Virus record (IMG/VR): IMGVR_UViG_3300032103_000216
Coordinates: 1 to 49,799 of that record
Length of the DNA: 49,799 nucleotides
Direction: 5' to 3' (one strand)
From: a virus
Taxonomy: Duplodnaviria; Caudoviricetes
Every line of letters begins with the position of its first letter. Position 1 is the stretch's first letter. Positions 23,746 to 42,180 of this stretch are shown piece by piece. The translations under genes were made by a program, and so were the position numbers. The notes below the pieces were generated by a model. That model made no database searches and was not told where the DNA came from. It saw nothing but the letters and a program-made list of their open reading frames with translations.

Positions 23746-24111
23746 TTATTCAAATATATCAACTAAAAATAATTCTTTTAATTTTCTTAATGGTTCTTCA
23801 ATAATTCTTGAAGTAGTCTCAATATGTTCATCGACAGAATATAACTCTAATTCTTTTATATTCATTTGTAATTGCTCAACAGTATTAAGAATTTCTTGCT
23901 CAGTTTTAGGTCTACGTTTAGTTACTACTGTCCAAAATGCACGTAAATAACCAGCCTTTAAGTCTGGATGACTTACAATTCGTAATGAACCATGTGCTTT
24001 ATTATCACCACGTTTTCTTAGTATCCAACGAGCATCAACATCATTTTCAGATATAAAACCTCTTATTCTTTCCCAATAAAAATCATTTATTACTTGTCCT
24101 TCTTCTTCCAT
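23746..24111 (-). CDS. hypothetical protein
   Basis: 121-aa ATG ORF in operon. Confidence 0.75.
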   Translation of the reverse strand: MEEEGQVINDFYWERIRGFISENDVDARWILRKRGDNKAHGSLRIVSHPDLKAGYLRAFWTVVTKRRPKTEQEILNTVEQLQMNIKELELYSVDEHIETTSRIIEEPLRKLKELFLVDIFE

Positions 24112-24117
24112 AGAAAT

Positions 24118-24396
24118 TTATTTTCTATTTTTTTTGCGAGAAGCATTTGCTGTTCTTCTCTTTTTCTTTTTTGCTTTATTTTCTTTGGCAGTTATTATTC
24201 TTCTTGGTTTACCCCAATAAATTAATGGTTTTTTTGTTTGGCTCTTAAGCAATTCATCTAATTGCTGCTTTTCTTCTTCAGTTAATTCATCGTAATTTAC
24301 TGCAGATTTTTTTTCTTCAGTGGTTAATTCACTTTCATTAATTTCATTTTGAGCTAAAAATTCAGGATTATCTAATAGTTTTTCGTTATCTTCCAT
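24118..24396 (-). CDS. hypothetical protein with acidic N-terminus and basic tail
   Basis: Preceded by TTG...TAGATTTG promoter (24419-24450). Confidence 0.7.
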   Translation of the reverse strand: MEDNEKLLDNPEFLAQNEINESELTTEEKKSAVNYDELTEEEKQQLDELLKSQTKKPLIYWGKPRRIITAKENKAKKKKRRTANASRKKNRK

Positions 24397-24456
24397 AAAT
24401 GAGTTTATTTAATTTTAACAAATCTAAACAATTATGGTAAATATGTCAAGTAAATG

Positions 24457-24493
24457 AAAAAGGATGAATACATATTTATATTCATCCTTTTTT
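24457..24493. terminator. bidirectional intrinsic terminator
   Basis: AAAAAGGATGAATA...TATTCATCCTTTTTT. Confidence 0.75.
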
Positions 24494-24506
24494 AGTTAAG
24501 AATATA

Positions 24507-25154
24507 TTACTTACGTAATGACCAATTTTCACCCTTTTCAGGGCCATAATGCCATACATAATAACTTTCCTTTTTCTCTGGATAAAACTTGCCACTTTCA
24601 ATGACAGCCATACATTCACCTTGACAAAAAGTTTCTTTTGTTATTCCAAGAAAACCATATGCAGTCATGCAGTTGTAAAATCCAATTGGTTTATCTAAAG
24701 GTTGACGAACTTCCCATCCACCTGAGAAGAATTTATCAATTGTTCTTTTAGTCCAATCAGCTAATGATTTCTCATGAACACTTCTAGCATAAGCAGCTTC
24801 ATCTTCAATGTACTTCCAATACTCAGCAATGCGTTCATCATTACGTGCATAGTCCATTTCATATCTGATGCGATTTTTTATTCTTTCAAGATTACCACTT
24901 TCATCCCAAATTATCGTATCTAAATCCATTGAATAAATATCGATTTTAGAACCTTTAGTTGAGGTCACTAATCTCATGTTACCAGCATGTGCTCTTTTAT
25001 CGGGGTCTACTTTCTCAAGATACTGATAAGGGCCATCCCAATATCCTTCTTTTTCTTCAGCAAACCAAGGCGCACCATGACCCGGAAGGCGAACATAACA
25101 TTCACCTGTAGGGTCTGCTTCTTGCAGCATTTTTATAAAATCTTTTGTTTTCAT
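24507..25154 (-). CDS. hypothetical protein
   Basis: 215 aa with MKTKDFIKMLQEADPTG...EGYWDGPY. Confidence 0.8.
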   Translation of the reverse strand: MKTKDFIKMLQEADPTGECYVRLPGHGAPWFAEEKEGYWDGPYQYLEKVDPDKRAHAGNMRLVTSTKGSKIDIYSMDLDTIIWDESGNLERIKNRIRYEMDYARNDERIAEYWKYIEDEAAYARSVHEKSLADWTKRTIDKFFSGGWEVRQPLDKPIGFYNCMTAYGFLGITKETFCQGECMAVIESGKFYPEKKESYYVWHYGPEKGENWSLRK

Positions 25155-25162
25155 CTTTTAAA

Positions 25163-25600
25163 TTATTTATCTAATTGTAATTTATAGAAATCACCCTTCT
25201 CGTTTTTATAATCAAAATATGCAGTTTTTAACTTTTCAAGTTGTGCTTTATATTCTGCTCTTTTCTTCTGAATAATAACTTCTTTTTCACTTAGTATTAC
25301 TTTAGCTCTTAAGTCAGAGCCAAGTACATTCTTCATTAAGAAATGAAGAAACATATTTACCTTCTTTAATGTTGAAACAATTTCAATTTCTTTTATCATT
25401 GAAGCTAATTTCTTCTTCTTTCTTTTACTCATATTTATTATTCCAACATTCATTTGAGTTGAACTAATGTTTACTACATTATCCCAATCTTTAAGCTGGT
25501 ATTGATTTTTATTTGCGAATTTTTCAATGTTCTCAATAGTTAAAGATACTAATTGTGCGTTCAATTCGCTAACGTGAATGTGATTAATTTTTGTTTCCAT
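25163..25600 (-). CDS. hypothetical protein
   Basis: 145-aa ATG ORF. Confidence 0.75.
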   Translation of the reverse strand: METKINHIHVSELNAQLVSLTIENIEKFANKNQYQLKDWDNVVNISSTQMNVGIINMSKRKKKKLASMIKEIEIVSTLKKVNMFLHFLMKNVLGSDLRAKVILSEKEVIIQKKRAEYKAQLEKLKTAYFDYKNEKGDFYKLQLDK

Positions 25601-25833
25601 AATTGTTTTTGTTAATTGTTTATAGTTATTGTGTCAGGTTTAACCTGACTGTTATAATACGAAAAGTTAACGTTTACAATTATGGTGGTCGTGGTGTTAT
25701 CTACTTAATTTTCATAGCTATATTAGTTTTCAAATTCTTTTTTTAATTTTTCGTATTGTCTTTTACGTTCTTCTTTTTCTCTTTGCTCTCTTATTCGTTT
25801 TTGTTCTCTTTCATATGCTTCACGTTTAATTTT

Positions 25834-26073
25834 TTATTCCTCTAAACGCTTTGCTCGTTCTGCAGCAACAACATCTAAATCTTCAGTTAAATTATCTGCG
25901 GTAATAGTTTCAGTATTTTCATCAATATCACCACATCGATAATCAATCCATCTGGCAGTAATTGTACCATCAGAATCTAATTCTAATCTATTTGGTTCTG
26001 AACCGAATTTTGTAATAGCAAATTGGTTTGCTCTTGTGTAAATTGTTTTTAATAAATCAGTTGTGATTTTCAT
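25834..26073 (-). CDS. hypothetical protein (coiled-coil tail may continue past 25834)
   Basis: ATG ORF. Charged coiled-coil-like sequence continues after the stop. Confidence 0.6.
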   Translation of the reverse strand: MKITTDLLKTIYTRANQFAITKFGSEPNRLELDSDGTITARWIDYRCGDIDENTETITADNLTEDLDVVAAERAKRLEE

Positions 26074-26084
26074 ATTATTGTTGG

Positions 26085-26438
26085 TTAATAAGTTACAAAA
26101 TTATTTAGCTTACCAGCAAGGGGTAAATAGGATGTTATCTTCTGATACTCAGGAGTAGCATAATAACAAATAGCTGTCATTTGATCCTGTAAATCAGGTT
26201 CAATAAATGCGACAACTTGTGCCCCTTTGTTAGTAAGTTGTTTGTAAAGTTTGATTAGAGAATCTTCGTCTTTAGTAGCAAGACAGATTTTGTAATTTGA
26301 ATTTTCTATCCAATCTTTAAATTGTTTTGGTTGGTGATACGCAAAATCAGCTACAGCATGGCAGCTTTGTGCGATTTGATAACCAATAGGTGAATTTTGT
26401 CTGGTTATTGTTACTAATTTAGAAACCTACTTTTTCAT
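26085..26438 (-). CDS. peptidyl-tRNA hydrolase Pth2 family, with in-frame TAG at codon 4
   Basis: ATG AAA AAG TAG then an open frame: VSKLVTITRQNSPIGYQIAQSCHAVADF...KICLA...F.EPDL.DQMTAIC...LPLAG. The AQxxHA, EPD..TA and LPL motifs are Pth2-type. Missed by the ORF track. Confidence 0.8.
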
Positions 26439-26470
26439 GGTTTTAGTTGTTGTTTTTTTATATAAACGTA

Positions 26471-26501
26471 CAAAGGTAATTAAAAGTTTTAAAAAATCAA
26501 G
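26471..26501 (-). promoter_or_regulatory. Bacteroidota sigmaA-type promoter for pth2
   Basis: TTG...TACCTTTG on the minus strand. Confidence 0.6.
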
Positions 26502-26521
26502 TTATTTTTAAAATATTTTTG

Positions 26522-26593
26522 TGATTCATATGGGATTCGAACCCATGTCAAGACTTTTAGAGAGTCCTACATTAACCGCTATGCTAATGAATC
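26522..26593 (-). tRNA. amber suppressor tRNA (anticodon CTA)
   Basis: GATTCAT/ATGAATC acceptor, anticodon arm GGACT-CTCTAAA-AGTCT, T arm ATGGG-TTCGAAT-CCCAT. Confidence 0.88.
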
Positions 26594-26620
26594 ATAGTAA
26601 TTTATATATTATACATAAAA

Positions 26621-26911
26621 TTAATCATCTTGGCTACCAAAAAAGTTCATTCTTATTATCTCAAAGTTTTCCAATGAAATATACTTAGTCTTAAATTTAT
26701 TATCTTCTTTGCCTACTTGATACATATATGTTTCACCTGATACAATAAATTTCTTTAAATTTTCATCATCTATACCAGCCTTTTCCCTATCTTCTTTAGT
26801 GGTATTTTCCATGATGTATTTATACCCATCACACTCTCTATCGGCTTTTGATGTTGGATATGTTCTTTTTAGAAGTGTAAATTTACCCATGATATTTTCT
26901 GATAAACCCAT
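26621..26911 (-). CDS. hypothetical protein
   Basis: ATG ORF. Confidence 0.65.
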   Translation of the reverse strand: MGLSENIMGKFTLLKRTYPTSKADRECDGYKYIMENTTKEDREKAGIDDENLKKFIVSGETYMYQVGKEDNKFKTKYISLENFEIIRMNFFGSQDD

Positions 26912-26939
26912 ACTGGTTCACAGTATATTCATAACTTCT

Positions 26940-27936
26940 TTAGTTTACATATTTTCTATCAGTCTTTTTTGCTACATTAGCAATTGAAGATAATAGTTTT
27001 TTGGTTGCCTTTATTGGTTTATTCTTGACTCTACTATCTTCACGTTTACCGATATCTAAATAAGTTTTAACGGTTTCATTATTTAATTCAAAAACCTTTT
27101 CACCTAAACTTTCAATCACTACATCAAGAGTCAAATTACAATATTCATCAATCCAATCACCAATATAATATAATCTTCTTGAACCACGAATAACTCCAAA
27201 TAAGATAGGGTCTTTTTTTCTTTTTCTTTATTTGTAAGATCAGTAGCATCATTATTTGAATCATAATGAAGGATCACATAATTATCAAAAACCAATTGGT
27301 CATCAGTTTTTCTTTTTACTTCTAATATTTTTGATGGAATAGGTTTAATGAAATTACTTATCCAAGTAAGTTTTAATGCTTTATCTTTTTCAGTTTTATT
27401 ATAAAAGTCTACTATTTGATCTTCTGTTAGAAATTTGTTTATTCCATATGCCACTAATTGAGATTCTGCTTTGGCTGATTCTAATCTACCTTTAAGTGAT
27501 TCAACTAATGCAACTTGACCAGCATCTTTAGCATTCTTAATTAATGTTTCATAATGAATGGCTATGTCAGTGAGCGATTTTAATTCTGAAAGTGAATTTG
27601 CAAGTGAAGAAAAAAATTGAAGAACAGTCATAGTTAACTTCTTATCTTTTTTCTTTTTTTCATAAAGCCGCCAAATAATTTTGAAAAGATATTAGAGTTC
27701 TTTTTTACATCTAAATCAATACTACCATCACTACCTTGACAAACAGTGGCAGTACTCCATGAATTTGTTCCTGTACCAGTATTAAATACTATAATCCCAT
27801 TTGAATCAGTAACAGGTAATAGTGGAACACTATTACCTAATTGTACCTGTGTAACAATGTTTTTATTAAATTTTGGAAGTGATTGATTTATTTGAAAATT
27901 TTCAAAAATTAAAAGTTTATTGTTTGACGTTACCAT
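26940..27936 (-). pseudogene. hypothetical protein split by two poly-A frameshifts (probable assembly errors)
   Basis: ORFs 27634-27966, 27131-27631 and 26940-27134 join at A-runs near 27650 and 27215 (...KEKK|DPILFGVIRGSRRLYYIGDWIDEYC). Confidence 0.6.
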
Positions 27937-28005
27937 ATGTATGATTTTTGGTAAAAATAGAAACAAAAAATAAAAAAGTCAATACATATTGATAATTTTA
28001 ATTAG

Positions 28006-28082
28006 AGTAGATGGTGGGATTCGAACCCACGACATATGCAAGTTTTGCAGACTTGCGCCTTGAACCACTTGGCGACATCCAC
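28006..28082 (-). tRNA. tRNA-Cys(GCA)
   Basis: Loop CTGCAAA, U73, cloverleaf. Confidence 0.9.
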
Positions 28083-28090
28083 GTATTATG

Positions 28091-28172
28091 TACCCTCAGT
28101 CAGACTCGAACTGACACGTCTTTCGACATTGGCTTCTTAGACCAACGTGACTACCATTTCCACCATGAGGGC
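28091..28172 (-). tRNA. tRNA-Leu(AAG)
   Basis: Loop CTAAGAA, long variable arm. Confidence 0.85.
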
Positions 28173-28175
28173 ATT

Positions 28176-28258
28176 TAGTATTGTTCTGTCATTGAACTAC
28201 AATCTTACTCCATGAAAGTAATTTGAGAAAGGTGGGACTTCAACCCACAACTATACTA
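28176..28258 (-). ncRNA. circularly permuted tRNA-like (YrlA-like) RNA
   Basis: 5'->3' order is T arm (GTGGG-TTGAAGT-CCCAC), looped acceptor-like stem, then D arm (GTTC-AATGACA-GAAC), closed by TAGTAT/ATACTA. Confidence 0.5.
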
Positions 28259-28269
28259 TTTTTTTTATG

Positions 28270-28357
28270 TACCCCAAGTAGGATTCGAACCTACACGCTA
28301 CTATTACTTCGCACTGGTTTCTAAAACCAGCATGTCTCACCGTTCCATCATTGGGGC
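28270..28357 (-). tRNA. tRNA-Leu(TAG)
   Basis: Loop TTTAGAA, long variable arm. Confidence 0.88.
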
Positions 28358-28362
28358 ATATA

Positions 28363-28737
28363 TTATATATCGTAATATCTTACTAATATATTCTTTTCGT
28401 TTGCTATGTTGATCATATGTGTTGAACCTTTTGAGTTATTAACTCTAAACACCACACATGCATCAGCATTTTCTGCCATTTGAACATTCCTTAAATATCC
28501 AGCACTCTTACCAAATTTATTCCAATCTGCAGGATACCTATGAATATCAAAACCATTTTCATTAGCATATCTTTCACCTAATTTATCTGCACCAACAGCA
28601 GTTCCAGATACAATATTGATTTCAAAATCTTCAAGTTTCTTAGCTAATAAATGATCAAGTTTTTCTTTAAGAAAATCATAATCATTAAAGTCTTTACTAC
28701 CAGCTACGATAACTCTAAACTTTTCTTTTTTTTTCAT
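28363..28737 (-). CDS. SLOG-family protein (DUF2493 / YspA-like)
   Basis: VIVAGS.DF, IVSGTAVGAD, PADW..GKSAG..RN..MA, SKGS.HM. Confidence 0.85.
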   Translation of the reverse strand: MKKKEKFRVIVAGSKDFNDYDFLKEKLDHLLAKKLEDFEINIVSGTAVGADKLGERYANENGFDIHRYPADWNKFGKSAGYLRNVQMAENADACVVFRVNNSKGSTHMINIANEKNILVRYYDI

Positions 28738-28738
28738 G

Positions 28739-28825
28739 CTCTTGGGGTAAGATTCGAACCTACGTTGGAACTTACGTTCACCAGATTAACAGTTTGGACT
28801 TTTCGGCCACTAAAGCAACCCAAGA
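28739..28825 (-). tRNA. tRNA-Asn(GTT) with long variable arm
   Basis: Loop CTGTTAA, G73, about 17-nt variable region. Confidence 0.75.
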
Positions 28826-28951
28826 ATATTTTAGGATGTCAGTGCAGTTACAATGATAACATCCCCAAATAAAGCAACTTGATTCGGTATCTGTTGACTT
28901 ACTAGTAACTCGCAAGTGACTCCCGACTTTAACAGCCTCTTTATTTGTTTG

Positions 28952-29038
28952 CAGAGAGTGAGGGATTCGAACCCCCGATCCCCGTAAAGGGACTCTTGTT
29001 TTCAAGACAAGTGCAATCAACCACTCTGCCAACTCTCT
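28952..29038 (-). tRNA. tRNA-Ser(TGA)
   Basis: Loop CTTGAAA, long arm, G73. Confidence 0.92.
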
Positions 29039-29354
29039 ATTTTCGATAAATAGAATCTTTAACTCTATTCATCAATTCAATTTCATCTTTTGTTAGTTCT
29101 TCAGTATTATTATCTGGAAGCATTTCATCATATGTTAAATAAAATCTTATTCTATGTTTCCAAATAAATTTAACACCAATTGCTAACTTAAAATCTTTAA
29201 GACTAACATTATCATTAATAATCCAATATAATGCAAAATCAATACCACCTAAACCTGAAATATAATCAACTCCTTCAACTAAATTTGAGTTACGTAAACC
29301 CTTATATATTGAAGTGTTGTATTTTTTAATACCTTTTATGTAGACAGTTTGCAT
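29037..29354 (-). CDS. hypothetical protein
   Basis: ATG ORF with TATCTTTG promoter at 29364-29371. Confidence 0.7.
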   Translation of the reverse strand: MQTVYIKGIKKYNTSIYKGLRNSNLVEGVDYISGLGGIDFALYWIINDNVSLKDFKLAIGVKFIWKHRIRFYLTYDEMLPDNNTEELTKDEIELMNRVKDSIYRK

Positions 29355-29400
29355 ATGTTGTTACAAAGATAATAAATTATTTTTTTAAATAAAAAAATTG

Positions 29401-29491
29401 AAGAGGATGTGAGACTCGAACTCACAAGACGGATTGGTTACCGTCACGGCAGTTTTCAAGACTGCTGCCTTACCAATTAGGCTAACCCTCC
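29401..29491 (-). tRNA. tRNA-Ser(TGA)
   Basis: Loop CTTGAAA, long arm. Confidence 0.88.
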
Positions 29492-29496
29492 AAGTT

Positions 29497-29630
29497 TAAA
29501 CGTGTTGCTGCAAGTAGTACGGGCACGATCCGTTTTATTGCCATCCTCTTATTTCTATTTTCATCCATCGATAGACTACTCATAGGTTTGCGCAAACCAG
29601 CACCAATGTTATAAGCATCAGCCACGTTTA
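29497..29630 (-). ncRNA. candidate structured ncRNA within the tRNA operon
   Basis: Terminal stem TAAACGTG-GCTG/CAGC-AA-CACGTTTA, internal GAGTAGT/ACTACTT and GGTTT-GCGC-AAACC. Confidence 0.5.
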
Positions 29631-29634
29631 TTTG

Positions 29635-29706
29635 AGCGACATGCGAGACTCGAACTCGCTACTGCAGAGTGGAAGTCTGCTGTGTAACCATCAACACCTA
29701 TGTCGC
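29635..29706 (-). tRNA. tRNA-Gly(TCC)
   Basis: Loop CTTCCAC, U73. Confidence 0.88.
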
Positions 29707-29711
29707 ATTTG

Positions 29712-29843
29712 CTGTACCAGTAGGACTCGAACCTACAAATGGAGATTAGGTTTATGCCAGTACGTTTAAACTCGCATCACTTTTTCTCTTTATCCACTCC
29801 CTTGTGACCGAAGGGCTATGTCTGCCATTTCCACCACAGTACA
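29712..29843 (-). ncRNA. tRNA-like RNA with ~60-nt variable arm
   Basis: Acceptor, Leu-like D arm, CCCTT-CGGTCAC-AAGGG arm and canonical T arm, 132 nt. Confidence 0.6.
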
Positions 29844-29851
29844 ATATTATG

Positions 29852-29922
29852 AGCCTGAAATTGGACTTGAACCAATACCTCTCGCTGCGCAGCAAGTATG
29901 CTACTATTTACACCATTCAGGC
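29852..29922 (-). tRNA. atypical tRNA (6-nt anticodon loop TGCGCA, identity unclear)
   Basis: Acceptor, D and T arms intact, U73. Confidence 0.5.
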
Positions 29923-29976
29923 AATAACTTGGGTACATTATCTTTCACGAGATAAGAGGCTTATCCGAGCATAATG

Positions 29977-30050
29977 TGCAGTATATCGGGATCGAACCGA
30001 CTCTATCCCTGATTGGCAATCAGGCGCACCACCATTTATGCGTATACTGC
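29977..30050 (-). tRNA. tRNA-Gly(GCC)
   Basis: Loop TTGCCAA. Confidence 0.85.
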
Positions 30051-30056
30051 TAAAAG

Positions 30057-30145
30057 CAGAGAGTAAGGGATTCGAACCCTTGGGTCAGGTTTACCCGACC
30101 TACAGTTTAGCAAACTGTTGCAATAGACCACTCTACCAACTCTCT
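30057..30145 (-). tRNA. tRNA-Ser(GCT)
   Basis: Loop TTGCTAA, long arm, G73. Confidence 0.92.
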
Positions 30146-30151
30146 AAAATG

Positions 30152-30224
30152 TGCTCACGATAGGACTCGAACCTATAACCGACATGGTATAAGCATGTTG
30201 CTCTCACCATTGAGCTACGTGAGC
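30152..30224 (-). tRNA. tRNA-Ile(TAT)
   Basis: Loop CTTATAC. Confidence 0.85.
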
Positions 30225-30268
30225 ATATATCGTCCAATAAAGGACGAATATACTAAAAATTTACCAAA

Positions 30269-30280
30269 ATGTCAATGAAC
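30269..30280 (-). promoter_or_regulatory. rrn-type boxA-like element
   Basis: GTTCATTGACAT between tRNAs. Confidence 0.5.
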
Positions 30281-30287
30281 TCTAATG

Positions 30288-30360
30288 TGTGGGTAGTCGG
30301 TTACGATCCGACCTCTCTGGATTTTCAGTCCAGTGCTTTCACCAGATTAGCTTTACCCAC
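30288..30360 (-). tRNA. tRNA-Phe(GAA)
   Basis: Loop CTGAAAA, variant T loop ATCGTAA. Confidence 0.82.
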
Positions 30361-30366
30361 ATTATG

Positions 30367-30438
30367 TGGGACTAACAGGAATCGAACCTGCGCTATACGC
30401 TTTTCAGGCGTACACTCTACCTACTGAGTTATAGTCCC
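30367..30438 (-). tRNA. tRNA-Phe(GAA)
   Basis: Loop CTGAAAA. Confidence 0.9.
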
Positions 30439-30448
30439 AAAATTTTTG

Positions 30449-30520
30449 AGGGAAGGGTGGGGATCGAACCCACGACAGGCAGATTAACAATCTGCTGTTC
30501 TACCTCTGAACTACCGACCC
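30449..30520 (-). tRNA. tRNA-Asn(GTT)
   Basis: Loop TTGTTAA, two acceptor mismatches. Confidence 0.82.
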
Positions 30521-30522
30521 AT

Positions 30523-30556
30523 AAAACAAAAAACCCGACTTTTTAGATCGGGTTTT
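30523..30556 (-). terminator. attenuator terminator of tRNA operon 1
   Basis: AAACCCGAT-CTAAAAA-GTCGGGTTT followed by TTTGTTTT, directly before tRNA-Asn. Confidence 0.85.
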
Positions 30557-30576
30557 CTCTTTTTTTTTGTTAGTTT

Positions 30577-30699
30577 TTAACTAACTGTAATATCCAAAGA
30601 ATAACCCGACTTTTTATGGCAAGAGCCAAAAAAATTACTTCCTGATATAGAATTACTATTCAGGTTGCAAAAGTTATTATTTAGATTGACTAATTTCAT
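30577..30699 (-). CDS. tRNA-operon leader peptide 1 (MKLVNLNNNFCNLNSNSISGSNFFGSCHKKSGYSLDITVS)
   Basis: Lies between promoter and terminator and contains antiterminator AAAAAGTCGGGTT (30603-30615). Codons match the downstream tRNAs. Confidence 0.8.
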   Translation of the reverse strand: MKLVNLNNNFCNLNSNSISGSNFFGSCHKKSGYSLDITVS

Positions 30700-30715
30700 T
30701 TCTCTGATTTTTTTA

Positions 30716-30754
30716 CAAAGTTACACATAAATACGTTCTTGTCAAGAAAAAGTT
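30716..30754 (-). promoter_or_regulatory. composite tRNA-operon promoter
   Basis: AAC...CTTGAC-N4-ACGTATTTA...TAACTTTG, conserved at 34099 and 42204. Confidence 0.8.
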
Positions 30755-30763
30755 TACTTTTTT

Positions 30764-31252
30764 TTACAAAAGTTTATAATTTTCAACATTAACATCTTCA
30801 ATCTTTTTAAAAATCACAGGATTTGTTTCTAACCATCTTTCAACATCGACATGATCATATTTAAAGACAAGTAGACAAGTAGATTCACTTTTAGTAACAT
30901 CTACAGTTTCAATCCAATCAAATATTCTTTTTCTGAGAACATCTTTTTTTAATTTCAATAATTCATTCCTTAAAAGAACATATCGAATATCTTGAAATAT
31001 CTCATTGTTTTCATCTTCATTTAAAAAATATTCTCCATCAATTCTTGATAAGAATATTAATGCAATAACATGAGTGCCATAATCTAACCAAGCATCAATA
31101 CCAAAGCAATCTGAATCATGGTGATTTGAGCCATACCCAAAACCACAATTGGGGCAACCATCTAAAAGATAGTACCCCAATGATCCACAGCGTTGAAACA
31201 TCTTGTTGTAATTACAACAAGGGCATTTACCACCAATTGCCTCAGTTAGCAT
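30764..31252 (-). CDS. zinc-ribbon hypothetical protein
   Basis: CPCC...CPNCG. Confidence 0.65.
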   Translation of the reverse strand: MLTEAIGGKCPCCNYNKMFQRCGSLGYYLLDGCPNCGFGYGSNHHDSDCFGIDAWLDYGTHVIALIFLSRIDGEYFLNEDENNEIFQDIRYVLLRNELLKLKKDVLRKRIFDWIETVDVTKSESTCLLVFKYDHVDVERWLETNPVIFKKIEDVNVENYKLL

Positions 31253-31523
31253 TCTCCAATTTCTTGTATTTCAAGATTGTTGTTTTAGATAAACCAAAAT
31301 GTTTTGCTGCAGCATTCAATGAATTCTTACAAGTAAAACTTTTAATTTGCTTTACAACAGATTTCTCAATTGGATTCAACTTTAAGCCGATATCATCCAA
31401 ACCCTCATTTTGACAATGATACGAAATAGTTGATTTGGCACAGTTCAATTTTTCTGCAATCTGGTTGTATGTCAACTTTCGCTTACGTAATTCAATGATT
31501 TTTTCTTTTAAACCGAAATTCAT
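31242..31523 (-). CDS. helix-turn-helix protein
   Basis: TYNQIAEKLNCAKSTISYH plus a second HTH-like segment. Confidence 0.7.
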   Translation of the reverse strand: MNFGLKEKIIELRKRKLTYNQIAEKLNCAKSTISYHCQNEGLDDIGLKLNPIEKSVVKQIKSFTCKNSLNAAAKHFGLSKTTILKYKKLENAN

Positions 31524-31558
31524 AGTTATTTAGTTTAGAACATTAAAATTTGATGTGT

Positions 31559-31584
31559 TATACGAGAATAACCTAATTTTGGTT
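31559..31584 (-). promoter_or_regulatory. putative ECF-sigma promoter AAC-N17-CGTATA
   Basis: Exact spacing, upstream of the ATG at 31523. Confidence 0.6.
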
Positions 31585-31618
31585 ATTTTAACTTAATTAA
31601 AATTACTTAACTATCTAA

Positions 31619-31867
31619 TTAGTCAATATCATATATAGTTTTTTGCGTAGTATTAATTGCTACTTTAATAGTTTTAAGTATTTCAACTTTATATATTACT
31701 ACCTCAAGAGTATCATTAAAACCTAATTGGTTAAAATTGCTTTTTATATTTTTAATAACCTCTTCCTCATTATCAAAGCCTTCTTTTGGATATGCTTCTA
31801 ATCCATATTTATCGATATCTTTAACTAATTGATAATCATAAAAAACTTCTTTAATTTTTTTGCTCAT
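31619..31867 (-). CDS. hypothetical protein
   Basis: ATGA overlap with the upstream stop (MSKKIK). Confidence 0.6.
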   Translation of the reverse strand: MSKKIKEVFYDYQLVKDIDKYGLEAYPKEGFDNEEEVIKNIKSNFNQLGFNDTLEVVIYKVEILKTIKVAINTTQKTIYDID

Positions 31868-32349
31868 ATGCCAGTATATTTTTTTATATAAAAAATGTCT
31901 AATTCCCACTGAAATTTACTTCTTTTTTTCCATATTTCAAATGATTCAGCAATATATTTTATGGCTTCTTTTTTAGACATGTTATTAACCTTTACTAATT
32001 GATTAATAACAATATGTTCCTCTCCATTCATCTGTGCTAAACCAACATGTTTTGTTTTATGACAATAAGGACATAATGCAATAAGACCTGTAAGTATTTG
32101 TTTGTGATTGGCATCATCATAATGCCATATTTCATGACATTCTACATTATGATTAAATCCTTGTTCATTACCAGTAGCACCACAGATTTCACATTTATGA
32201 TTTGCAAGTTTATAACATTTTTTTCGTATTATGTCCCAAGTAAATTCAGACACATGACTACGAACATTAGTGTACCAACATGTACTTGGTACTAATTCAA
32301 TTGTAAGACGTAATTGGGTTTTATCCATTTCAAAAAATGAAAGTTCCAT
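31864..32349 (-). CDS. HNH endonuclease family protein
   Basis: ELVP..W..NVRS, CEICG, ECHEIW.Y, LCPYCHKTKH. Confidence 0.8.
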   Translation of the reverse strand: MELSFFEMDKTQLRLTIELVPSTCWYTNVRSHVSEFTWDIIRKKCYKLANHKCEICGATGNEQGFNHNVECHEIWHYDDANHKQILTGLIALCPYCHKTKHVGLAQMNGEEHIVINQLVKVNNMSKKEAIKYIAESFEIWKKRSKFQWELDIFYIKKYTGI

Positions 32350-32395
32350 AGTTGTGGCGTTAAGCCTAACGGCAAGTCACTTTCAACCCACCTCG

Positions 32396-32467
32396 TTGTC
32401 GATAACAGAATCGAACTGTTGACTGCTTGTGTATCAGACAAGTACTCTACCACTGAGTTAATCAACA
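32396..32467 (-). tRNA. tRNA-Ile(GAT)
   Basis: Loop CTGATAC. Confidence 0.85.
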
Positions 32468-32518
32468 AAATATTAAGGATTCCATACCTAAAAGGGAAGT
32501 CACCCATAACCCACCTCG

Positions 32519-32593
32519 TAGTCATAACAGGATTTGAACCTGTACTCTCAAAATTATCAGTTTTGCGCTTTAACCAAATTAAGCTACATGACC
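32519..32593 (-). tRNA. tRNA-Ile(GAT)
   Basis: Loop CTGATAA. Confidence 0.9.
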
Positions 32594-32997
32594 ATTATCT
32601 ATATTTGTTAGATATATAATCTTTATATAGTGTTTGTGATAATAAATATGTTTTACAAGAATCAGTAAATATTATGGTGGTTTGTTCATTCCAAATAAAA
32701 CAATCTCCTACAGATTGTGCTTTATATTCACAAATTCCATTACCAACATTTTTTTTTCTCTTATTTGATAAATAACACCATCACAAGTATCACAACTAAT
32801 AATAATGTAATTACTAAAATAATCAATAATAATTTTCTCATATTTAATATATAAGAAATTCACGCACTTTTTAGAATTAATTATTTTCTGTGAATGAATT
32901 CTTATCATTAAATACTTAATATCTATTACTTTATTTTACATTAATATTTTTATAGCTAATCACCCAATTGAGTTTGTTTTAATTATTAATTTTTTTG

Positions 32998-33070
32998 TAC
33001 CCTTAGTAGGATTCGAACCTACATCTGATGAATCGAACTCATCAATTTTTATCCATTAAACTATAAAGGT
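32998..33070 (-). tRNA. tRNA-Arg(TCG)
   Basis: GATGA-GTTCGAT-TCATC anticodon arm. Confidence 0.8.
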
Positions 33071-33129
33071 ATTGTTTACCATTTTTTTATTGCATTACCA
33101 CTAATTACAAAATCGAACCTTTATTTATG

Positions 33130-33201
33130 TACTCTTAATAGGAATCGAACCTATATCTAATGCTTCGCAAGCATTTATTTTTTCCGTTAAACTATAAGAG
33201 T
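33130..33201 (-). tRNA. tRNA-Arg(GCG)
   Basis: AATGC-TTGCGAA-GCATT anticodon arm. Confidence 0.8.
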
Positions 33202-33203
33202 AT

Positions 33204-33305
33204 GCTCCGACTTTTACTTATCCGCATTTCGGATACCTATTGATGGTGGTTGTTTCAGTCGGCAACCAGAAGGTTTACAATGACTACGCTAACCTACAAA
33301 CCCTG
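33204..33305 (-). ncRNA. candidate pseudoknotted RNA between Arg tRNAs
   Basis: Three hairpins. Loop CCGACT is complementary to the 3' AGTCGG. Confidence 0.4.
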
Positions 33306-33307
33306 CG

Positions 33308-33380
33308 TACACCTAACAGGACTCGAACCTGTACTTTTCTCGTTAGAAGCGAGAAGTTCTTCCAATTAAACTATAGATGC
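33308..33380 (-). tRNA. tRNA-Arg(TCT)
   Basis: Loop CTTCTAA. Confidence 0.88.
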
Positions 33381-33410
33381 ATATATTATCACATTTAAAT
33401 GTGAAAGTAG

Positions 33411-33482
33411 TACCCCCGATAGGAATCGAACCTATATCAAATGATTAGAAGTCACTTATTTTATCCATTAAACTACAGGGGC
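33411..33482 (-). tRNA. tRNA-Arg(TCT)
   Basis: Loop CTTCTAA. Confidence 0.9.
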
Positions 33483-33490
33483 ATCTAAAT

Positions 33491-33733
33491 TTAGAATCCA
33501 ATTCCAAATTTAACTACAGTATCATCACCTAAATCATTTTTAACACTAATTTTCAATACCTTTTTTAAGTCAGTTGAAAACAAATAGTCAAAAACATCTA
33601 AGTTAATAGTAACTACTTTGCTACTGCGTTCTTTTTTAAAAATTTTAATTGAATTTACGTCTTCAATTTTTAGTAAATCAAATTCATTCATTAATTTGAA
33701 TTTACCACTTACAATATCTTTTACTGTAAACAT
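33491..33733 (-). CDS. hypothetical protein within the tRNA operon
   Basis: 80-aa ATG ORF filling the gap between tRNAs. Confidence 0.65.
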   Translation of the reverse strand: MFTVKDIVSGKFKLMNEFDLLKIEDVNSIKIFKKERSSKVVTINLDVFDYLFSTDLKKVLKISVKNDLGDDTVVKFGIGF

Positions 33734-33748
33734 AATTATTTAATTTTG

Positions 33749-33834
33749 AGCTTGGAGTGGGATTCGAACCCACGTGAAGGTATTACCTCTCCTGATTACA
33801 AGTCAGGTGCAATCGACCACTATGCGACCCAAGC
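33749..33834 (-). tRNA. tRNA-Thr(TGT) with long variable arm
   Basis: CCTGA-CTTGTAA-TCAGG, variable hairpin GAGGT-AAT-ACCTT. Confidence 0.8.
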
Positions 33835-33844
33835 AAAACCCAAT

Positions 33845-33856
33845 ATGTCAAAGAAC
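33845..33856 (-). promoter_or_regulatory. rrn-type boxA-like element
   Basis: GTTCTTTGACAT after the first tRNA of the operon. Confidence 0.55.
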
Positions 33857-33866
33857 CTTTTATCCG

Positions 33867-33938
33867 AGCCAAGACTAAGAATCGAACTTAGGTTTTTACT
33901 CTACCAAAGTAACGTAATTTCAACTATACTATCAAGGC
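33867..33938 (-). tRNA. tRNA-Thr(GGT)
   Basis: TTACT-TTGGTAG-AGTAA anticodon arm. Confidence 0.82.
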
Positions 33939-33942
33939 TTAT

Positions 33943-33976
33943 AAACAAAAAAACCCGATTATTTTTAATCGGGTTT
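33943..33976 (-). terminator. attenuator terminator of tRNA operon 2
   Basis: AAACCCGATTA-AAAA-TAATCGGGTTT followed by TTTTGTTT. Confidence 0.88.
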
Positions 33977-34005
33977 AAGTGTTTATGATATTTTTATAAA
34001 AAAAT

Positions 34006-34080
34006 TTACACAATAAACCCGTTAGATGACGTAGTACGTCTTTTTCTTGTAATTCGGGTAATTTTAATTAAATTTTTCAT
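34006..34080 (-). CDS. tRNA-operon leader peptide 2 (MKNLIKITRITRKRRTTSSNGFIV)
   Basis: Thr/Arg/Ile codon cluster followed by antiterminator CGGGTTTA, upstream of Thr/Arg/Ile tRNAs. Confidence 0.82.
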   Translation of the reverse strand: MKNLIKITRITRKRRTTSSNGFIV

Positions 34081-34098
34081 TATTTTCAATATTTTATG

Positions 34099-34138
34099 CA
34101 AATATACTACTAAATACGTTAAAGTCAAGAAAAAAGTT
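34099..34138 (-). promoter_or_regulatory. composite tRNA-operon promoter
   Basis: AAC...CTTGAC-N4-ACGTATTTA...TATATTTG. Confidence 0.8.
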
Positions 34139-34833
34139 TATTTTCTTTGAATTATTTCATCAACAATTCCATATTCTAAGGCTTCAATACCTTTCATCCA
34201 GTAGTCTCTGTCACAATCCTTCTCTATTTGTTCAAGAGTTTTCTCTTTACCTTTTGGTAGGTGCATTTGAATGATTTCGTAAAGTTCTGTTTTGATGATA
34301 TGAATTTGTTTATAGCTAATTTCCATATCTGATGCTTGACCTTGCATACCACCTAATGGTTGATGTAGCATAATTCTTGAGTATGGTAAAGAGTATCTTT
34401 TACCTGCAGCACCAGATGCCAATAAAATTGCACCCATTGATGCTGCTAATGAAATTGCGACAGTTGATACATCTGGTGTAATGTATTGCATTACGTCACG
34501 AATACCGTAACCAGCGTAAACAGAGCCACCGGGAGAGTTAATATACATCGTGATATCTCTCTTCGGGTCAAGATTATCTAAGAAAAGTAATTGTGCAGTA
34601 ACAACATTACATACAAGATCATCAATTGGCATACCAAGAAATATGATCCTATCCTGCATTAATCTTGAGAATACATCAATTTCTCTAAAGTTCATTTGAC
34701 GTTCTTCAATAATGGAACGTGTCATGTCAGTGATACCATGATTCATTTGAGCATTATCATACCTATGTAATGTTAATGATGAAATGCCCATGTGATTTAC
34801 GGCATAATTTTTAAATTCTTTGCTGATATTCAT
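34138..34833 (-). CDS. clpP: ATP-dependent Clp protease proteolytic subunit
   Basis: DVFSRLMQDRIIFLG, YINSPGGSV, AASMGA, RIMLHQPLGG, DRDYWM. Confidence 0.95.
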   Translation of the reverse strand: MNISKEFKNYAVNHMGISSLTLHRYDNAQMNHGITDMTRSIIEERQMNFREIDVFSRLMQDRIIFLGMPIDDLVCNVVTAQLLFLDNLDPKRDITMYINSPGGSVYAGYGIRDVMQYITPDVSTVAISLAASMGAILLASGAAGKRYSLPYSRIMLHQPLGGMQGQASDMEISYKQIHIIKTELYEIIQMHLPKGKEKTLEQIEKDCDRDYWMKGIEALEYGIVDEIIQRK

Positions 34834-34926
34834 AATTTAATTTTAAGTTTAACAAAAATAATGAAATTAGATTTTATTGTCAATAATTATAAAATTTTAC
34901 ATAGCTAATTTTTGTATTTATATTTG

Positions 34927-35211
34927 ATGAAAAGAATTTTAATTAGATTAGGTATGACACTATTTTTATTGTTTGGTGTTGAATCTTGTGCTGTTTTTAA
35001 CGGTGGCACGTATGACAAAAATCCATGTTTTTATTTAGACAATCAAAATATGAAAATTGAGTGTTTAAAATGGAGAGAAAATTATCCTAGAGAATATAAT
35101 AATTTCTATGATAGAGTTAAGAGAAAATATATTGATTCAGTTTATTTATCGTTACCACCAAGAGTAGATTTTTTATTAAAAAAAAATGGTAAAGTCACAC
35201 CATTAAAATAA
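34927..35211 (+). CDS. putative lipoprotein
   Basis: MKRILIRLGMTLFLLFGVESC signal/lipobox-like N-terminus, TATTTATA upstream. Confidence 0.55.
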   Translation: MKRILIRLGMTLFLLFGVESCAVFNGGTYDKNPCFYLDNQNMKIECLKWRENYPREYNNFYDRVKRKYIDSVYLSLPPRVDFLLKKNGKVTPLK

Positions 35212-35523
35212 ATTCATTTAACTACGTCAATAACATATTGAATTTTTGGTGTATATTTTATACTCCAAACTTTAATGTAGTATTTATTTTTTTCTCTATC
35301 ATATCGATGTGCAATTAATCCAGAAAATAATTTAACTATTAAATTATACTGGTTTTTTGTTACTTCAATTGGTATGTCGTACAGTATTTTCTGTGTTTGT
35401 TTCCATATGGGCAATGTTTACATTTATTTTTACAACAATATCCTCTTTTTAAATGATATGCTTCTGTAAACACAAATTTACCAGATTCAATGTAGTAATC
35501 AATATTTTCCACTAATTTATTTT

Positions 35524-36069
35524 TCATTCATTATGATAATATACTTTATTACATAAACAAATAAAATCATCGTTTTTCAGTGATTTCTTAATTAAAAAGA
35601 TATCTTTGTGTACCCATTGAATATTTCCAGTAATGTAACCTTGTTCTGGAATTATAGTATCCAACATTGCCGTTGTTTTATCTGAATTATATGGATATCC
35701 TGAAAACTCTAAATCTAATCCAGATAATTTACATTTTTTATTTTGTTTTAAAACAATATCCCATGCTTCTTCAATTCTAACATTAAATATAATTTTTTTA
35801 CTTGAAGCATATCTTTTTATTTGTGCCCACATGTCGCCAGATATTTCACCATATCCTTTCCTATTCTTTAATCCAACTTCTTTTCTAGCACAATTAGAAC
35901 ATTGAGTTGATCTTCCATTCATTAATGAATTAGACTTAACCTCTAGAACATATCCACAATCACATTCACACAACCAGTATGTCAGGTTATTCTTTTTTTT
36001 AGGTAATGATTCAAGAACTGTCCACTTACCAAACTTTTTACCTTTCTCAATTAACAAGAATTTACGCAT
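35524..36069 (-). CDS. putative endonuclease (AP2/HNH-associated zinc-ribbon N-terminus)
   Basis: GKKFGKWTV...WLCECDCG...CSNC, C.LSG...D.I....GY..GNIQWVHKD. Confidence 0.65.
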   Translation of the reverse strand: MRKFLLIEKGKKFGKWTVLESLPKKKNNLTYWLCECDCGYVLEVKSNSLMNGRSTQCSNCARKEVGLKNRKGYGEISGDMWAQIKRYASSKKIIFNVRIEEAWDIVLKQNKKCKLSGLDLEFSGYPYNSDKTTAMLDTIIPEQGYITGNIQWVHKDIFLIKKSLKNDDFICLCNKVYYHNE

Positions 36070-36349
36070 ATTAATTACTTATTTTTTGATTCAAATATGT
36101 ATTGAGTATAATCCAACATTTTGTTCCTAATATGTGTACATTACATTAATATTAGTTTATATTTTATATTATTCTCATCTAATACTAGATTCTCATCTAA
36201 TACTAGATTTCCGTCTAATATAGTAAATTTTTTTATATTTGTCTCTTTTCTGACAATATTTAATAGATATTCTTCATGAAGAAATAATGTGACATACTCG
36301 TTATTAAGTATGTCACATATTTGATTATATACTTCTTTATGAAGGTAAA

Positions 36350-39300
36350 TTAACCGCATTTTGAGTTACCACAAGATACACAAGTTAAACAACCTTCTTT
36401 GTATTCAAGGTTTTCACTACCACAGCTTGGGCATTTACCATTACCTTTTTCACCATCTTGAAAATATCGCTTAATAACTCTGGCAACACCATTCTTCCAA
36501 GTATTAAGATGCTCATCATTTAAATTTAATGATTGAATTAAATTCAATACATAAACCATTGGCATCCCATGACGTAATACTGACGAAATCAATTTAGCAT
36601 AATTCCAGAATTCAGGATTAAAAGTATGATTTAATCCAGTGTGAACTTTCTTCTCTCCATTAACATCAACGTATTCAATGTCGTAACGCTTAGTACCATC
36701 ATCATACTTATTTTTTACAATTTCACATTCAGTAATATTTGTAGGCAATTCACTTAAACCATTTTCTAATTTACCTGTAAATATTTCATATGGTCTTCCA
36801 TCAAGTAAACCAACTACCGCAATCCACTTTTCAAGATTATTTTGAAAACGAATAATCTCACCTTTTAATCTTTTAGGTCTTTTAGGTGCATGATTATCTT
36901 TAAATAAGTTTTCCTTTTCTTTTTTCTTCTTATCTGTTTCAGAAATTAAAACACCAGAACGAGAGCCATCACGGTATACAGTAATACCTTTGCATTTTGA
37001 TCTCCATCCAGTTTCATATACTTTACCAACCATTTCTTCAGTGATTTCATTTGGTAAATTTACTGTTACAGAAATTGAATGATCTACATGTCTTTGTACC
37101 CGACCTTGCATTTCAACTTTCTTTACCCAATCAACATCGTTTGATGTAGCACCATAATATGGTGAAAGTTTAACAAGTTCATTAATCTGTTCATTAGTAT
37201 AATGTAGCTTAACATTTTCAACATCATAGCCATTTGCAACTAACCATGTTTCAAATTTATGATGAAATACAGGATACTCCATCCAAGTATCACCTAACTC
37301 ATCAACAAAATCAACACGAACATTTTTATCGTTAGGATTAATTTTTCTTCTACGAGTATAATATACCAAAAATACACACTCAATACCAGATGATGTTTGA
37401 GTCATAATAGATACTGAACCAGTAGGAGCAATTGTAAGTAAAGCAAGATTTCTTCTGCCATACTTAATCATTTGTTTATATAATTCAGGGTCTTCATTTT
37501 CAATTCTCTGAATGAATGGATTTTTTTCTTCACGTCTAAAGTCATACATAGGGAATGCACCACGTTCTTTAGCCATGATAACTGATGAACGATATGCTTC
37601 AAGTTTAAGTACTTTATGCACTTCTTCTGAAAAATCATTTGCTTTATCAGTACCATACTTTAAACCAAGTGCTGCAAGCATATCACCTTCAGCAGTAACA
37701 CCAAGACCTGTTCTACGACCTCTTGTTGCTTTATCTTTAATATTCAACCAAAGTTGTCTTTCAGCATTTTTTATGTGCTCAACTTCAGGATCGTTCTCAA
37801 TCTTAGTTAAAATTTTAACAACTTTTTCCAATTCAAGATCAACAATATCATCCATTAATCTTTCAGCAATAATCGCATCTTCTTTAAATGCTTCCCAATC
37901 AAAATATGCATCTTTGGTGAATGGATTTACAACATAACCATATAAGTTGATTGCTAATAAACGGCAAGAGTCGTTAGCACATAATGTAATTTCACCACAT
38001 CTTCTTGTTGATATACCATTAACTATAATATTTCTACCAATATCTTCTTTTAGACAGTAAACTGGTTCATTTTCACATACTTTAATTTCATTAATAGTAT
38101 CAGTTAATGAATCTGAAATTCTGTAATCATGCGTTGTATCAAATTTACTTTCTTTCACATTATCACCTATAAACCCAAAATATTTACAATAATTCACTAT
38201 TGATGAATTTATTGTTATTAATTCATATTGTGTTTTAGTACGATACATTTTATTACCACCATTTCCATCTGGTAGTGATGTCATTTTAGAATCTCTTCTT
38301 TTATAGATTTTAGTCATAACACCATTAGAATGTAATATCAATTGTATTTTTTCAAGTAAATTTTTATTACTTTGTGCTAACCTGATTGAAAAACCAGACC
38401 TTTTCGTACCTTGAATTGAACCATCACAATACATCAATGCTGCAACGTAATATTTACCAATGCTGGTTCTTGAATTTCTTAAAATAAATTCTGGTACATG
38501 ATGCTTAGTTTCCCTATTGAAATTACAGTACTTATCTAGAATAATAGCTAACCATTTGGATGTTATTCTAATTTTATCTGCATCAACAATGTCGCTACGC
38601 ATATATTTAGAATATAGTTTATTTTTTTCATTTACTTTTTCATCAAAATTTTGATATAGAGTATCAATCATATTAGTAACGAATTCATACATTCTTTCTT
38701 TATCTTCACCCCATAAATCTATATGAACTCTACCATTTTTTTTAGTAAATGTACCATCACCAGTAATTAACCCAATTAATGTAGCCATAATCTCATCTAA
38801 AGAAGTAGGTGTTAAACCAACAATAGAATCACCAACATTTGGTTGACTAATCAATATTTGATGTTCAGGTGTGATGTCTTTTGCCTCAATCATCCCATCT
38901 GTTGTTGCAATATGATGGTCAGGCGTACACTTTAATTTTAGTCCACTATTTAATGTTAACTCAATAATTTCTGCATCTGATTTCGTTAAAAATACATTAC
39001 TTGCATTTCTTTCTATTACACCTGATTCATCCATATTGATTTTCCAATTCTCTGGTTTTTCAATTCCATCATCAACATATGAAATTCTATTATCTGCAAG
39101 TATAGTGTTTTCAACACCTTCATCATTTAGTTTCCCAAATTTTACATACCCATTTTTAGTCAACAGATATTCCGATGCAGGAAAGCAAGGATTTGTTGAA
39201 ATTGTTTTAAACCCTAAATCAGCATAACAATCAGGAATAGATTCACGAATAATTGTATCCCAAAATAAGATTCCGGGTTCGGCTGATTTCCATGCATTAT

Positions 39301-41122: not shown

Positions 41123-41290
41123 TTTTAATTTTTTGTAGTTTTTTATAAAATAAATAGACTCTGACACTGACAGTATCAGAATGTTTTTTGGATTTTTTAC
41201 CAATGTTAGAAATAAATACAAGATGTGTCAACCAAACTTTTGAAAAAATAAATATTTATTTTTTCTGTTAAGTGTAACTATTGATTATCA

Positions 41291-41566
41291 CTACTTTACC
41301 CAAAAATTTTTTGATTTAGTAGAGGTAGATTGTTTAAAGTATTCTCTTTTTTTAGGTTCTTTTGGAAATTTAATTCCTGTTTTTATTTTTTCATTAAAAA
41401 GTAAATTGCTTCCTAAGTGGGTATCATACTCAAACCAAGTACTACCTGAATAGTAACTTGTTTCTTCAATTAATTTTTCTTCAGATGAAGCAGTTGATAA
41501 TAATTTATCCTGTGCTTTGTTATTATAAAGCAAATAATATTTAGATGGTTTGATTTCTTCAGACAT
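41291..41566 (-). CDS. hypothetical protein
   Basis: 91-aa ATG ORF ending in TAG. Confidence 0.7.
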   Translation of the reverse strand: MSEEIKPSKYYLLYNNKAQDKLLSTASSEEKLIEETSYYSGSTWFEYDTHLGSNLLFNEKIKTGIKFPKEPKKREYFKQSTSTKSKNFWVK

Positions 41567-41688
41567 AAATTCAAAATAATTAATAACAAATTTGTTATTA
41601 ATTATTTTGAATTTGTCAATATGGGGGGTATACTATAGAGCTTTCTCAATCTAACATACGGATTGTACATGTTACTATTTTCCCTGAG

Positions 41689-41778
41689 TGCATCGGGTGG
41701 GATTCAAACCCACGTTATGTATTGCTACCTTTATAGATTAAAAGTCTATTACCTCAGTCTCCACTCGGTCACCGATGC
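41689..41778 (-). tRNA. tRNA-Lys(TTT) with long variable arm
   Basis: ATAGA-CTTTTAA-TCTAT, extended variable region. Confidence 0.75.
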
Positions 41779-41967: not shown

Positions 41968-41976
41968 ATATGTTTG

Positions 41977-42111: not shown

Positions 42112-42180
42112 TTAAGACATAGTATTACCGATCTTCACTTCTGAAGACTTTTTATAATAATATTTCTTTACAGTTTTCAT
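42112..42180 (-). CDS. tRNA-operon leader peptide 3 (MKTVKKYYYKKSSEVKIGNTMS)
   Basis: KKYYYKK followed by antiterminator GTGAAGATC, upstream of Tyr, Tyr and Lys tRNAs. Confidence 0.85.
   Translation of the reverse strand: MKTVKKYYYKKSSEVKIGNTMS

Follow-up and report, generated by a model that had tools for sequence, protein, structure and literature searches.

Short leaders that mirror the tRNA arrays behind them in a phage genome: a probable case of ribosome-mediated attenuation

A short leader unit in front of a phage tRNA array is very probably a ribosome-mediated transcription attenuator that gates the array, a reading built on sequence features and RNA folding models. The leader lists the amino acids of the tRNAs behind it, a predicted terminator separates the two, and leaders of the same anatomy recur in other phages, where their codons vary together with the content of their arrays.

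The leader unit and its codon match

The stretch of DNA analysed, which we call the window, is a piece of a virus record, 49.8 kb long and with 29.6% GC. It carries genes for ribonucleotide reductase, ClpP, tRNA-His guanylyltransferase, an RNA ligase and a polynucleotide kinase, along with 25 tRNA genes, every one of them on the minus strand (ARAGORN). Its database matches are mainly to uncultured huge phages, Lak phages and Bacteroides phages, and the nearest relative of its ClpP lies on a 247-kb viral contig (L001 in G001; 85% identity); just one of 12 loci with ClpP relatives has the same tRNA layout. The available text of PMC6847099 describes TAHHTTTG as the -7 consensus of Bacteroidetes; the presence of this element together with the above matches points to a Bacteroidota host. 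The unit in question has the following parts:

30716..30745, minus strand: promoter-like motif of leader 1, with a Bacteroidota-type -7 octamer at 30723-30716
30577..30699, minus strand: leader 1 ORF, 40 sense codons and TAA
30616..30693, minus strand: predicted sensor region, leader 1 codons 3-28
30603..30615, minus strand: predicted antiterminator segment, a copy of 5 loop bases and 8 3' arm bases of the terminator
30528..30558, minus strand: intrinsic terminator hairpin with 12 pairs, a 7-nt loop and a U-rich tail, found by pattern match and folds
28005..30520, minus strand: tRNA array 1, with 13 assigned tRNAs, one tRNA-like gene and two embedded ORFs
30270..30280, minus strand: boxA-like 11-mer inside array 1
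29364..29371, minus strand: internal -7 octamer, a candidate promoter, in front of the ORF 29354-29037

A short ORF between promoter and genes, cognate codons and a terminator before the first gene, all features of attenuators, are found together. The start codon of leader 1 has G at -3 and A at -6, -12 and -13, and the ORF has no match in Pfam. A recount of the ORF (30699-30577) bore out the preliminary description of a 40-codon leader with 8 Asn codons; these are joined by 8 Ser, 4 Leu, 3 Phe, 3 Gly, 3 Lys, 2 Cys, 2 Ile and 2 Val codons, with Met, His, Tyr, Asp and Thr occurring once each. The ten-codon run singled out in that description (ATA TCA GGA AGT AAT TTT TTT GGC TCT TGC) corresponds to codons 18-27, and the CTA, CTG and two TGC codons that it named are present. 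The array itself reads Asn, Phe, Phe, Ile(TAT), Ser, Gly, the tRNA-like gene, Gly, Ser, Ser, Asn, Leu, Leu and Cys. Each of the tRNAs named earlier (the Asn, Phe x2, Ile, Ser, Gly, Leu and Cys set) is called by both ARAGORN and Rfam, while the additional tRNA-like gene at 29851-29922 (minus strand), which is shared with G001, has no readable anticodon.

The proposal that the leader's codons mirror the array stood up to controls and is matched at many independent loci. Over codons 3-28, 24/26 residues belong to the seven-amino-acid set of the array against a proteome background of 0.40 (binomial P 3e-8), a score that no proteome window (0 of 6,618) and no base shuffle (0 of 100,000) attains. 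The +1 and +2 frames over the sensor region yield 13 and 10 matches and contain stops. At the level of decoding, the array's anticodons read 23 of the 26 sensor codons (2 via four-way wobble), among them four that are minor in the window, CTA, CTG, GGC and TGC. Past the start of the pairing segment, in codons 29-40, the match drops to 6/12, and this drop falls where pairing is predicted to be lost, at codons 28-29 (see below). Leader 1 has an ortholog in G001 (L043), and among the contigs of four DNA runs it is present in two relatives, whose indels either lie beyond the ORF or touch its final two codons.

Could such a match arise by chance? The low GC content of the window favours Asn, Phe, Ile, Leu and Ser codons, and the 13-mer shared by leader and terminator might be a local duplication. 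Of 99,444 six-frame windows, 7 reach the score of the leader; two are the leader itself, and the other five, all on the plus strand, lie within stretches of minus-strand genes. These five unrelated windows mean that composition alone is not unique in AT-rich DNA. The base shuffles go against chance, as do several comparisons between phages to which we return below.

The frame-specificity of the match also bears on a second reading, that of a T-box-like switch, in which uncharged tRNA would bind the leader RNA directly. In T-box riboswitches the status of a tRNA picks the terminator or the antiterminator by direct binding and with no translation, and the same logic operates upstream of tRNA-related genes. 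Here, the match is confined to one frame, in which it extends across 26 codons for seven amino acids, and Rfam reports neither a T-box (E <= 1, 24000-44000) nor another leader family above threshold. We therefore reject the T-box reading, which we consider scarcely credible.

Two other loci in the window bear on tRNA biology. An amber-anticodon (CUA) tRNA at 26521-26593 (minus strand) lies directly upstream of an ORF at 26085-26438 (minus strand) for a PTH2-family peptidyl-tRNA hydrolase (Pfam PF01981) with an in-frame TAG as codon 4; expression of this ORF may be suppressor-gated. The pair recurs in L001, again with TAG as codon 4, and in L142, with TAG as codon 3, and is absent from L051, L054 and L055. 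At 46589-47501 (minus strand), homology to polynucleotide kinase is divided between two overlapping ORFs adjoining an RNA ligase-like gene, and by their homology these genes appear to form a tRNA-repair module near the arrays.

The terminator and the predicted switch

The terminator-like hairpin lies about 14 nt before the first tRNA gene (tRNA-Asn), and no other minus-strand terminator was matched between 30528 and 26366. As had been noted from the sequence, a 13-mer copies the loop and 3' arm of this hairpin: its only two occurrences in the window are those at 30603-30615 and 30532-30544, and just its 8 arm bases are able to pair with the terminator 5' arm. The further suggestion that the copy within the ORF acts as an antiterminator is supported as a prediction. 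In partial-transcript folds, where the RNA extends only to the end of the terminator 5' arm and the ribosome is assumed to mask 9 nt past its A-site codon, the duplex with the 5' arm has a probability of 0.86 with no ribosome or with the A-site at any codon up to 26; the value is 0.75 at codon 27, 0.43 at codon 28 and 0 from codon 29 onwards. Only 3 of 300 synonymous recodings of leader 1 pair as strongly.

The predicted duplex energies are -12.6 kcal/mol for the antiterminator (2:3) versus -16.4 kcal/mol for the terminator (3:4). Full-length equilibrium folds with ribosome masks gave no switching, the terminator being kept at every ribosome position. Since the terminator always wins in these folds, the switch can only be kinetic. 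An upstream protector hairpin (I:II) is predicted for leader 3 of the window and not for leader 1; hence, leader 1 is expected to open if translation is lost, given the pairing predicted without a ribosome. A mutually exclusive antiterminator that is masked once the ribosome has passed the control region fits leader 1, as a prediction.

The same dominance of the terminator, along with the presence of internal promoter-like motifs, would also suit a constitutive terminator: the unit would then yield a trans-acting small RNA or peptide, and the tRNAs would come from leakage or start at internal promoters, for instance that at 29371-29364. A second promoter had indeed been proposed at 29364. Its -7 octamer is present, and the upstream element common to the three leader promoters of the window is missing; with 46 such octamers per strand in the window, a bare octamer makes this site a candidate promoter only. 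The corresponding tRNA interval in G001 is about 200 nt, too short for the ORF 29354-29037. Against a constitutive terminator, the leader peptides are poorly conserved in sequence while their composition follows the array, changes in the pairing segment go along with changes in the 5' arm, and the distance from stop to arm is fixed (see below). We consider this reading highly improbable.

Array 1 contains further elements. The 11-mer at 30270-30280 recurs at 33846-33856 (minus strand) inside array 2, and both copies are boxA-like. Such a motif is found at most 900 nt after the leader stop in sense orientation for 18 of 46 leaders and in antisense for none of the 46, against 14 of 632 background windows. 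Two intergenic stretches at 29712-29845 and 29500-29625 (minus strand) are structured, and in one of them a long insert is flanked by acceptor and T arms like those of a tRNA.

Leaders in other phages and genomes

Three copies of the leader promoter motif are present in the window, each of them heading a short ORF, a terminator and a tRNA array. The two sister units are:

34006..34080, minus strand: leader 2, 24 codons, Thr/Arg/Ile
34128-34099, 33976-33951 and 33938-32395, minus strand: promoter, terminator and array of the leader 2 unit
42112..42180, minus strand: leader 3, 22 codons, Tyr/Lys
42233-42204, about 42090-42061 and 42050-41688, minus strand: promoter, terminator and array of the leader 3 unit

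Leader 2 scores 11/16 against the amino-acid set of its own array and 6/16 and 2/16 against the other two; for leader 3 the corresponding values are 7/12, 1/12 and 2/12. Thus, each of the three leaders fits its own array best. Among viral contigs the promoter pattern is found in G001 only. It recurs at 7 metagenome loci: a leader follows at 4 of them (2 being duplicates of G001) and not at the other 3.

The arrangement extends to cultured phages. In Cellulophaga phage phi17:2 (NC_021798; L167) three tRNA blocks, together covering all 20 amino acids, each follow a short ORF and a hairpin. The leader ORFs are:

3839-3907: first leader of phi17:2
4799-4882: second leader, with a GTG start
6358-6456: third leader

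Their matches to their own blocks are 11/13, 16/17 and 11/13, with a pseudo-tRNA scored as Cys by its GCA anticodon, and no leader exceeds 3 with any other block. The predicted pairing between segment and 5' arm is 0.4-0.7, and singly these leaders do not beat synonymous shuffles (97, 235 and 63 of 1000). Cellulophaga phage phi4:1 has the first leader region at 99% identity. A BLASTN search of the leader region of the window against cultured phages matched the tRNA part only; a terminator pattern is missing from Lak-B1, crAss001 and DAC23, and its matches in Flavobacterium phage immuto have no tRNA nearby. The presence of leaders in cultured phi17:2 makes the device testable at the bench.

Comparative genomics, which the preliminary description had proposed as a check, recovered tRNA-linked leaders at many viral loci. 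A pattern made of the RNA elements only retrieved 31 viral loci, 29 with tRNA genes downstream and two that end at a contig edge, and a short ORF is in place at all 31. A looser pattern applied to 185,579 bacterial and archaeal genomes gave 76 loci, three of them with tRNAs directly downstream; each of the three is on a MAG contig and is probably phage-derived. Some short ORF precedes the hairpin at 58 of the 76, and so an ORF by itself is weak evidence. Leader-headed tRNA arrays like those of phages are present on a 363-kb contig of a Paceibacterota MAG (L141, G008:C1) and on an 8.7-kb contig of a Deltaproteobacteria MAG (L143, G009:C24); both contigs are probably mis-binned phage DNA. The pattern of terminator and tRNA without the antiterminator found 14 loci of 5 distinct kinds, 4 of which have a leader.

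In four large records (G001, G003, G004 and G005; 247-365 kb) the tRNAs are sorted into arrays with matching leaders, the sets being Pro/His/Gln, Asp/Glu/Val/Leu/Ala/Trp, Tyr/Lys and Cys/Asn/Ile/Ser/Phe/Gly/Thr/Arg. The last set forms a single array in G003-G005 and two arrays in the clade of the window. The leaders track this split: Thr and Arg codons are in leader 2, and Leu codons accompany the Leu tRNAs in leader 1. Behind the Tyr/Lys leader of G001, no tRNA is recognisable as Tyr or Lys (0/12). Among 18 array heads inspected under relaxed rules, a leader was found at 4 and none at 14, the latter including the Pro/His/Gln arrays of G004 and G008, two arrays of G002 and small distal clusters.

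Automatic detection gave 60 leader-array pairs, 46 of them distinct, in 19 clusters. For a swap test we took one representative from each of 14 clusters, dropping 5 singleton clusters that by eye look like kin of others (one of these, L035, fits its own array poorly, 9/24). The true pairing scored 50.2 against -0.1 +/- 6.5, none of 200,000 swaps was as good, and the own array ranked first for 11 of the 14. When the kin of leader 1 and the broad sets were removed, 2 of 200,000 swaps did as well for the 9 remaining classes, and the own array came first in 9/9. Within single records, the true assignment ranked first in 5/5 (of 6, 24, 24, 6 and 6 orderings), with G001 represented by 4 of its 5 leaders and its Tyr/Lys leader left out. 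Matching at the level of isoacceptors is weak across the leader data set, in a test that was underpowered.

Covariation extends to the RNA. In L044, L051, L161, L031 and L001 the pairing segment varies along with unlike terminator arms, and in L022 and L031 it is complementary to the 5' arm, yet not an exact copy of the 3' arm. Among leaders not picked via the antiterminator pattern, 13/22 beat at least 95% of their synonymous shuffles and 9/22 do not. The distance from stop to arm is 22-40 nt in 44 of the 46 leaders. Third codon positions are the most variable in 6 of 8 clusters and tied for most in a seventh, and non-synonymous differences outnumber synonymous ones in 7/8; by these comparisons it is composition, and not sequence, that is conserved in the leaders.

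These results allow the chance reading to be rejected, on the strength of the swap test and the shuffles, the 29 of 31 viral loci with tRNAs and the matches in phi17:2. The GC-richer sets (Pro/His/Gln and Asp/Glu/Val/Ala/Trp) also match their arrays, and the segments of L022 and L031 are not what a duplication would leave; we consider chance extremely unlikely.

Leaders of broader composition exist. In other phage groups, nearly every amino acid is represented in L154 (2879, minus strand) and L157, leaders that head mixed tRNA arrays. A marine bacterium has, on a 1.5-Mb contig (L137, G006:C27:1104000-1118000; also L084, L118 and L120), a leader whose terminator and pairing segment are the same, followed by a TROVE/Ro60 gene and then by a long array of tRNAs (Met x6, Cys, Val, Ala, Glu, Asp and Gly), possibly a cellular counterpart of the phage leaders. 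A recurrent short ORF with a terminator and no tRNA nearby is found in Flavobacteriaceae/Bacteroidales genomes (L069, L081, L087, L125, L113 and L117).

A translated, terminator-coupled leader might instead report the overall rate of translation, as altered by antibiotics, ribosome damage or host shut-off, the codon match being secondary. Leaders such as L154 and the TROVE-associated leader of a bacterial chromosome are in keeping with this, as is the antiterminator predicted without any ribosome, by which lost initiation alone would give read-through. Such a sensor leaves unexplained that each leader matches its own array only and tracks array rearrangements, and we regard it as improbable.

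Proposed mechanism and known systems

On the codon-specific attenuation that we favour, RNA polymerase would start at the promoter-like motif (30745-30716) and the leader, 40 codons long, would be read by a ribosome. Rapid decoding of its Asn, Ser, Phe, Gly, Ile, Leu and Cys codons would bring the ribosome over 30603-30615 ahead of the synthesis of the terminator; the hairpin 30558-30528 would then form and transcription would end just before tRNA-Asn. Where decoding of any of these codons is slow, the ribosome would lag at codons 3-27; the segment, left free, would bind the 5' arm, and transcription would run on into the tRNAs for these seven amino acids, closing a negative feedback loop. The trigger may be tRNA loss through host nucleases, heavy demand by the phage, or starvation. 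The leader cannot distinguish a lost tRNA from an uncharged one; as extra tRNA is no cure for starvation, tRNA loss or heavy demand would be the likelier trigger.

More tentatively, and as an idea that could well fail, Bacteroidota phages might possess a genome-wide sensor of codon supply, with tRNAs sorted into a few arrays and each leader sampling exactly the codons of its own. Where an anti-phage nuclease cuts a host tRNA, the matching leader would stall and turn on the replacement tRNAs, amounting to an inducible counter-defence made of RNA only. The attenuator reading would explain the sorting of these tRNAs into blocks and is testable in the cultured phages phi17:2 and phi4:1; the leaders would serve as ready-made reporters of codon-specific tRNA shortage.

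The tRNA L-array of Anabaena PCC 7120 is reportedly repressed by TrcR. In the available text of PMC8421152 this trn array is a silent reserve that impaired translation induces, by way of direct repeats in the promoter and a repressor. It would share with the phage units a reserve tRNA array induced under translation impairment, and its control, unlike that proposed for the phage leaders, is not codon-specific as far as this text describes it; the terms 'attenuat' and 'leader' have 0 occurrences there (PMC8421152).

The reason for phages to carry tRNAs is a long-standing question. By listing the amino acids of its own array, a leader implies supply on demand under a decoding shortage, and not a constitutive tuning to codon bias. 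A viral tRNA is also said to counter the PARIS defence. According to the available text of PMC11555353, the tRNA-Tyr of T5/SP15 counters tRNA cleavage by retron-Eco7, and these anti-defence tRNAs, like those proposed here, replace lost host tRNA. The T5/SP15 tRNA is driven by a strong promoter, whereas expression of the window array looks conditional from its sequence; 'attenuat' and 'leader' likewise have 0 occurrences in that text (PMC11555353).

The T-box would share with the phage unit a choice of terminator or antiterminator according to tRNA status and differs in its direct binding of tRNA. We found no description of attenuation of tRNA genes in the literature searched, subscription journals lying outside its scope. 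The pheST genes are under leader-peptide attenuation too. Ribosome-mediated attenuators are known for trp, his, leu, thr, ilvGMEDA and ilvBN as well as pheA, and, going by the available text of PMC1183508, leader 1 resembles these amino-acid attenuators in its short ORF with regulatory codons, a segment that can pair with the 5' arm and a terminator before the controlled genes. Unlike them, the phage unit would control tRNA genes, in a virus, with seven amino acids in a single leader and several leaders per genome that split the genetic code among arrays; its pairing segment is inside the ORF, and no I:II protector is predicted for leader 1. Membership in the trpL/hisL/ilvL/pheL family is ruled out by the tRNAs downstream and by the lack of an Rfam leader above threshold and of a Pfam match. 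By analogy, the unit would work like trpL or ilvL without belonging to those families. Attenuation is a known mechanism; what is likely new is its action on tRNA genes and in a virus, which would extend it from enzyme operons to both.
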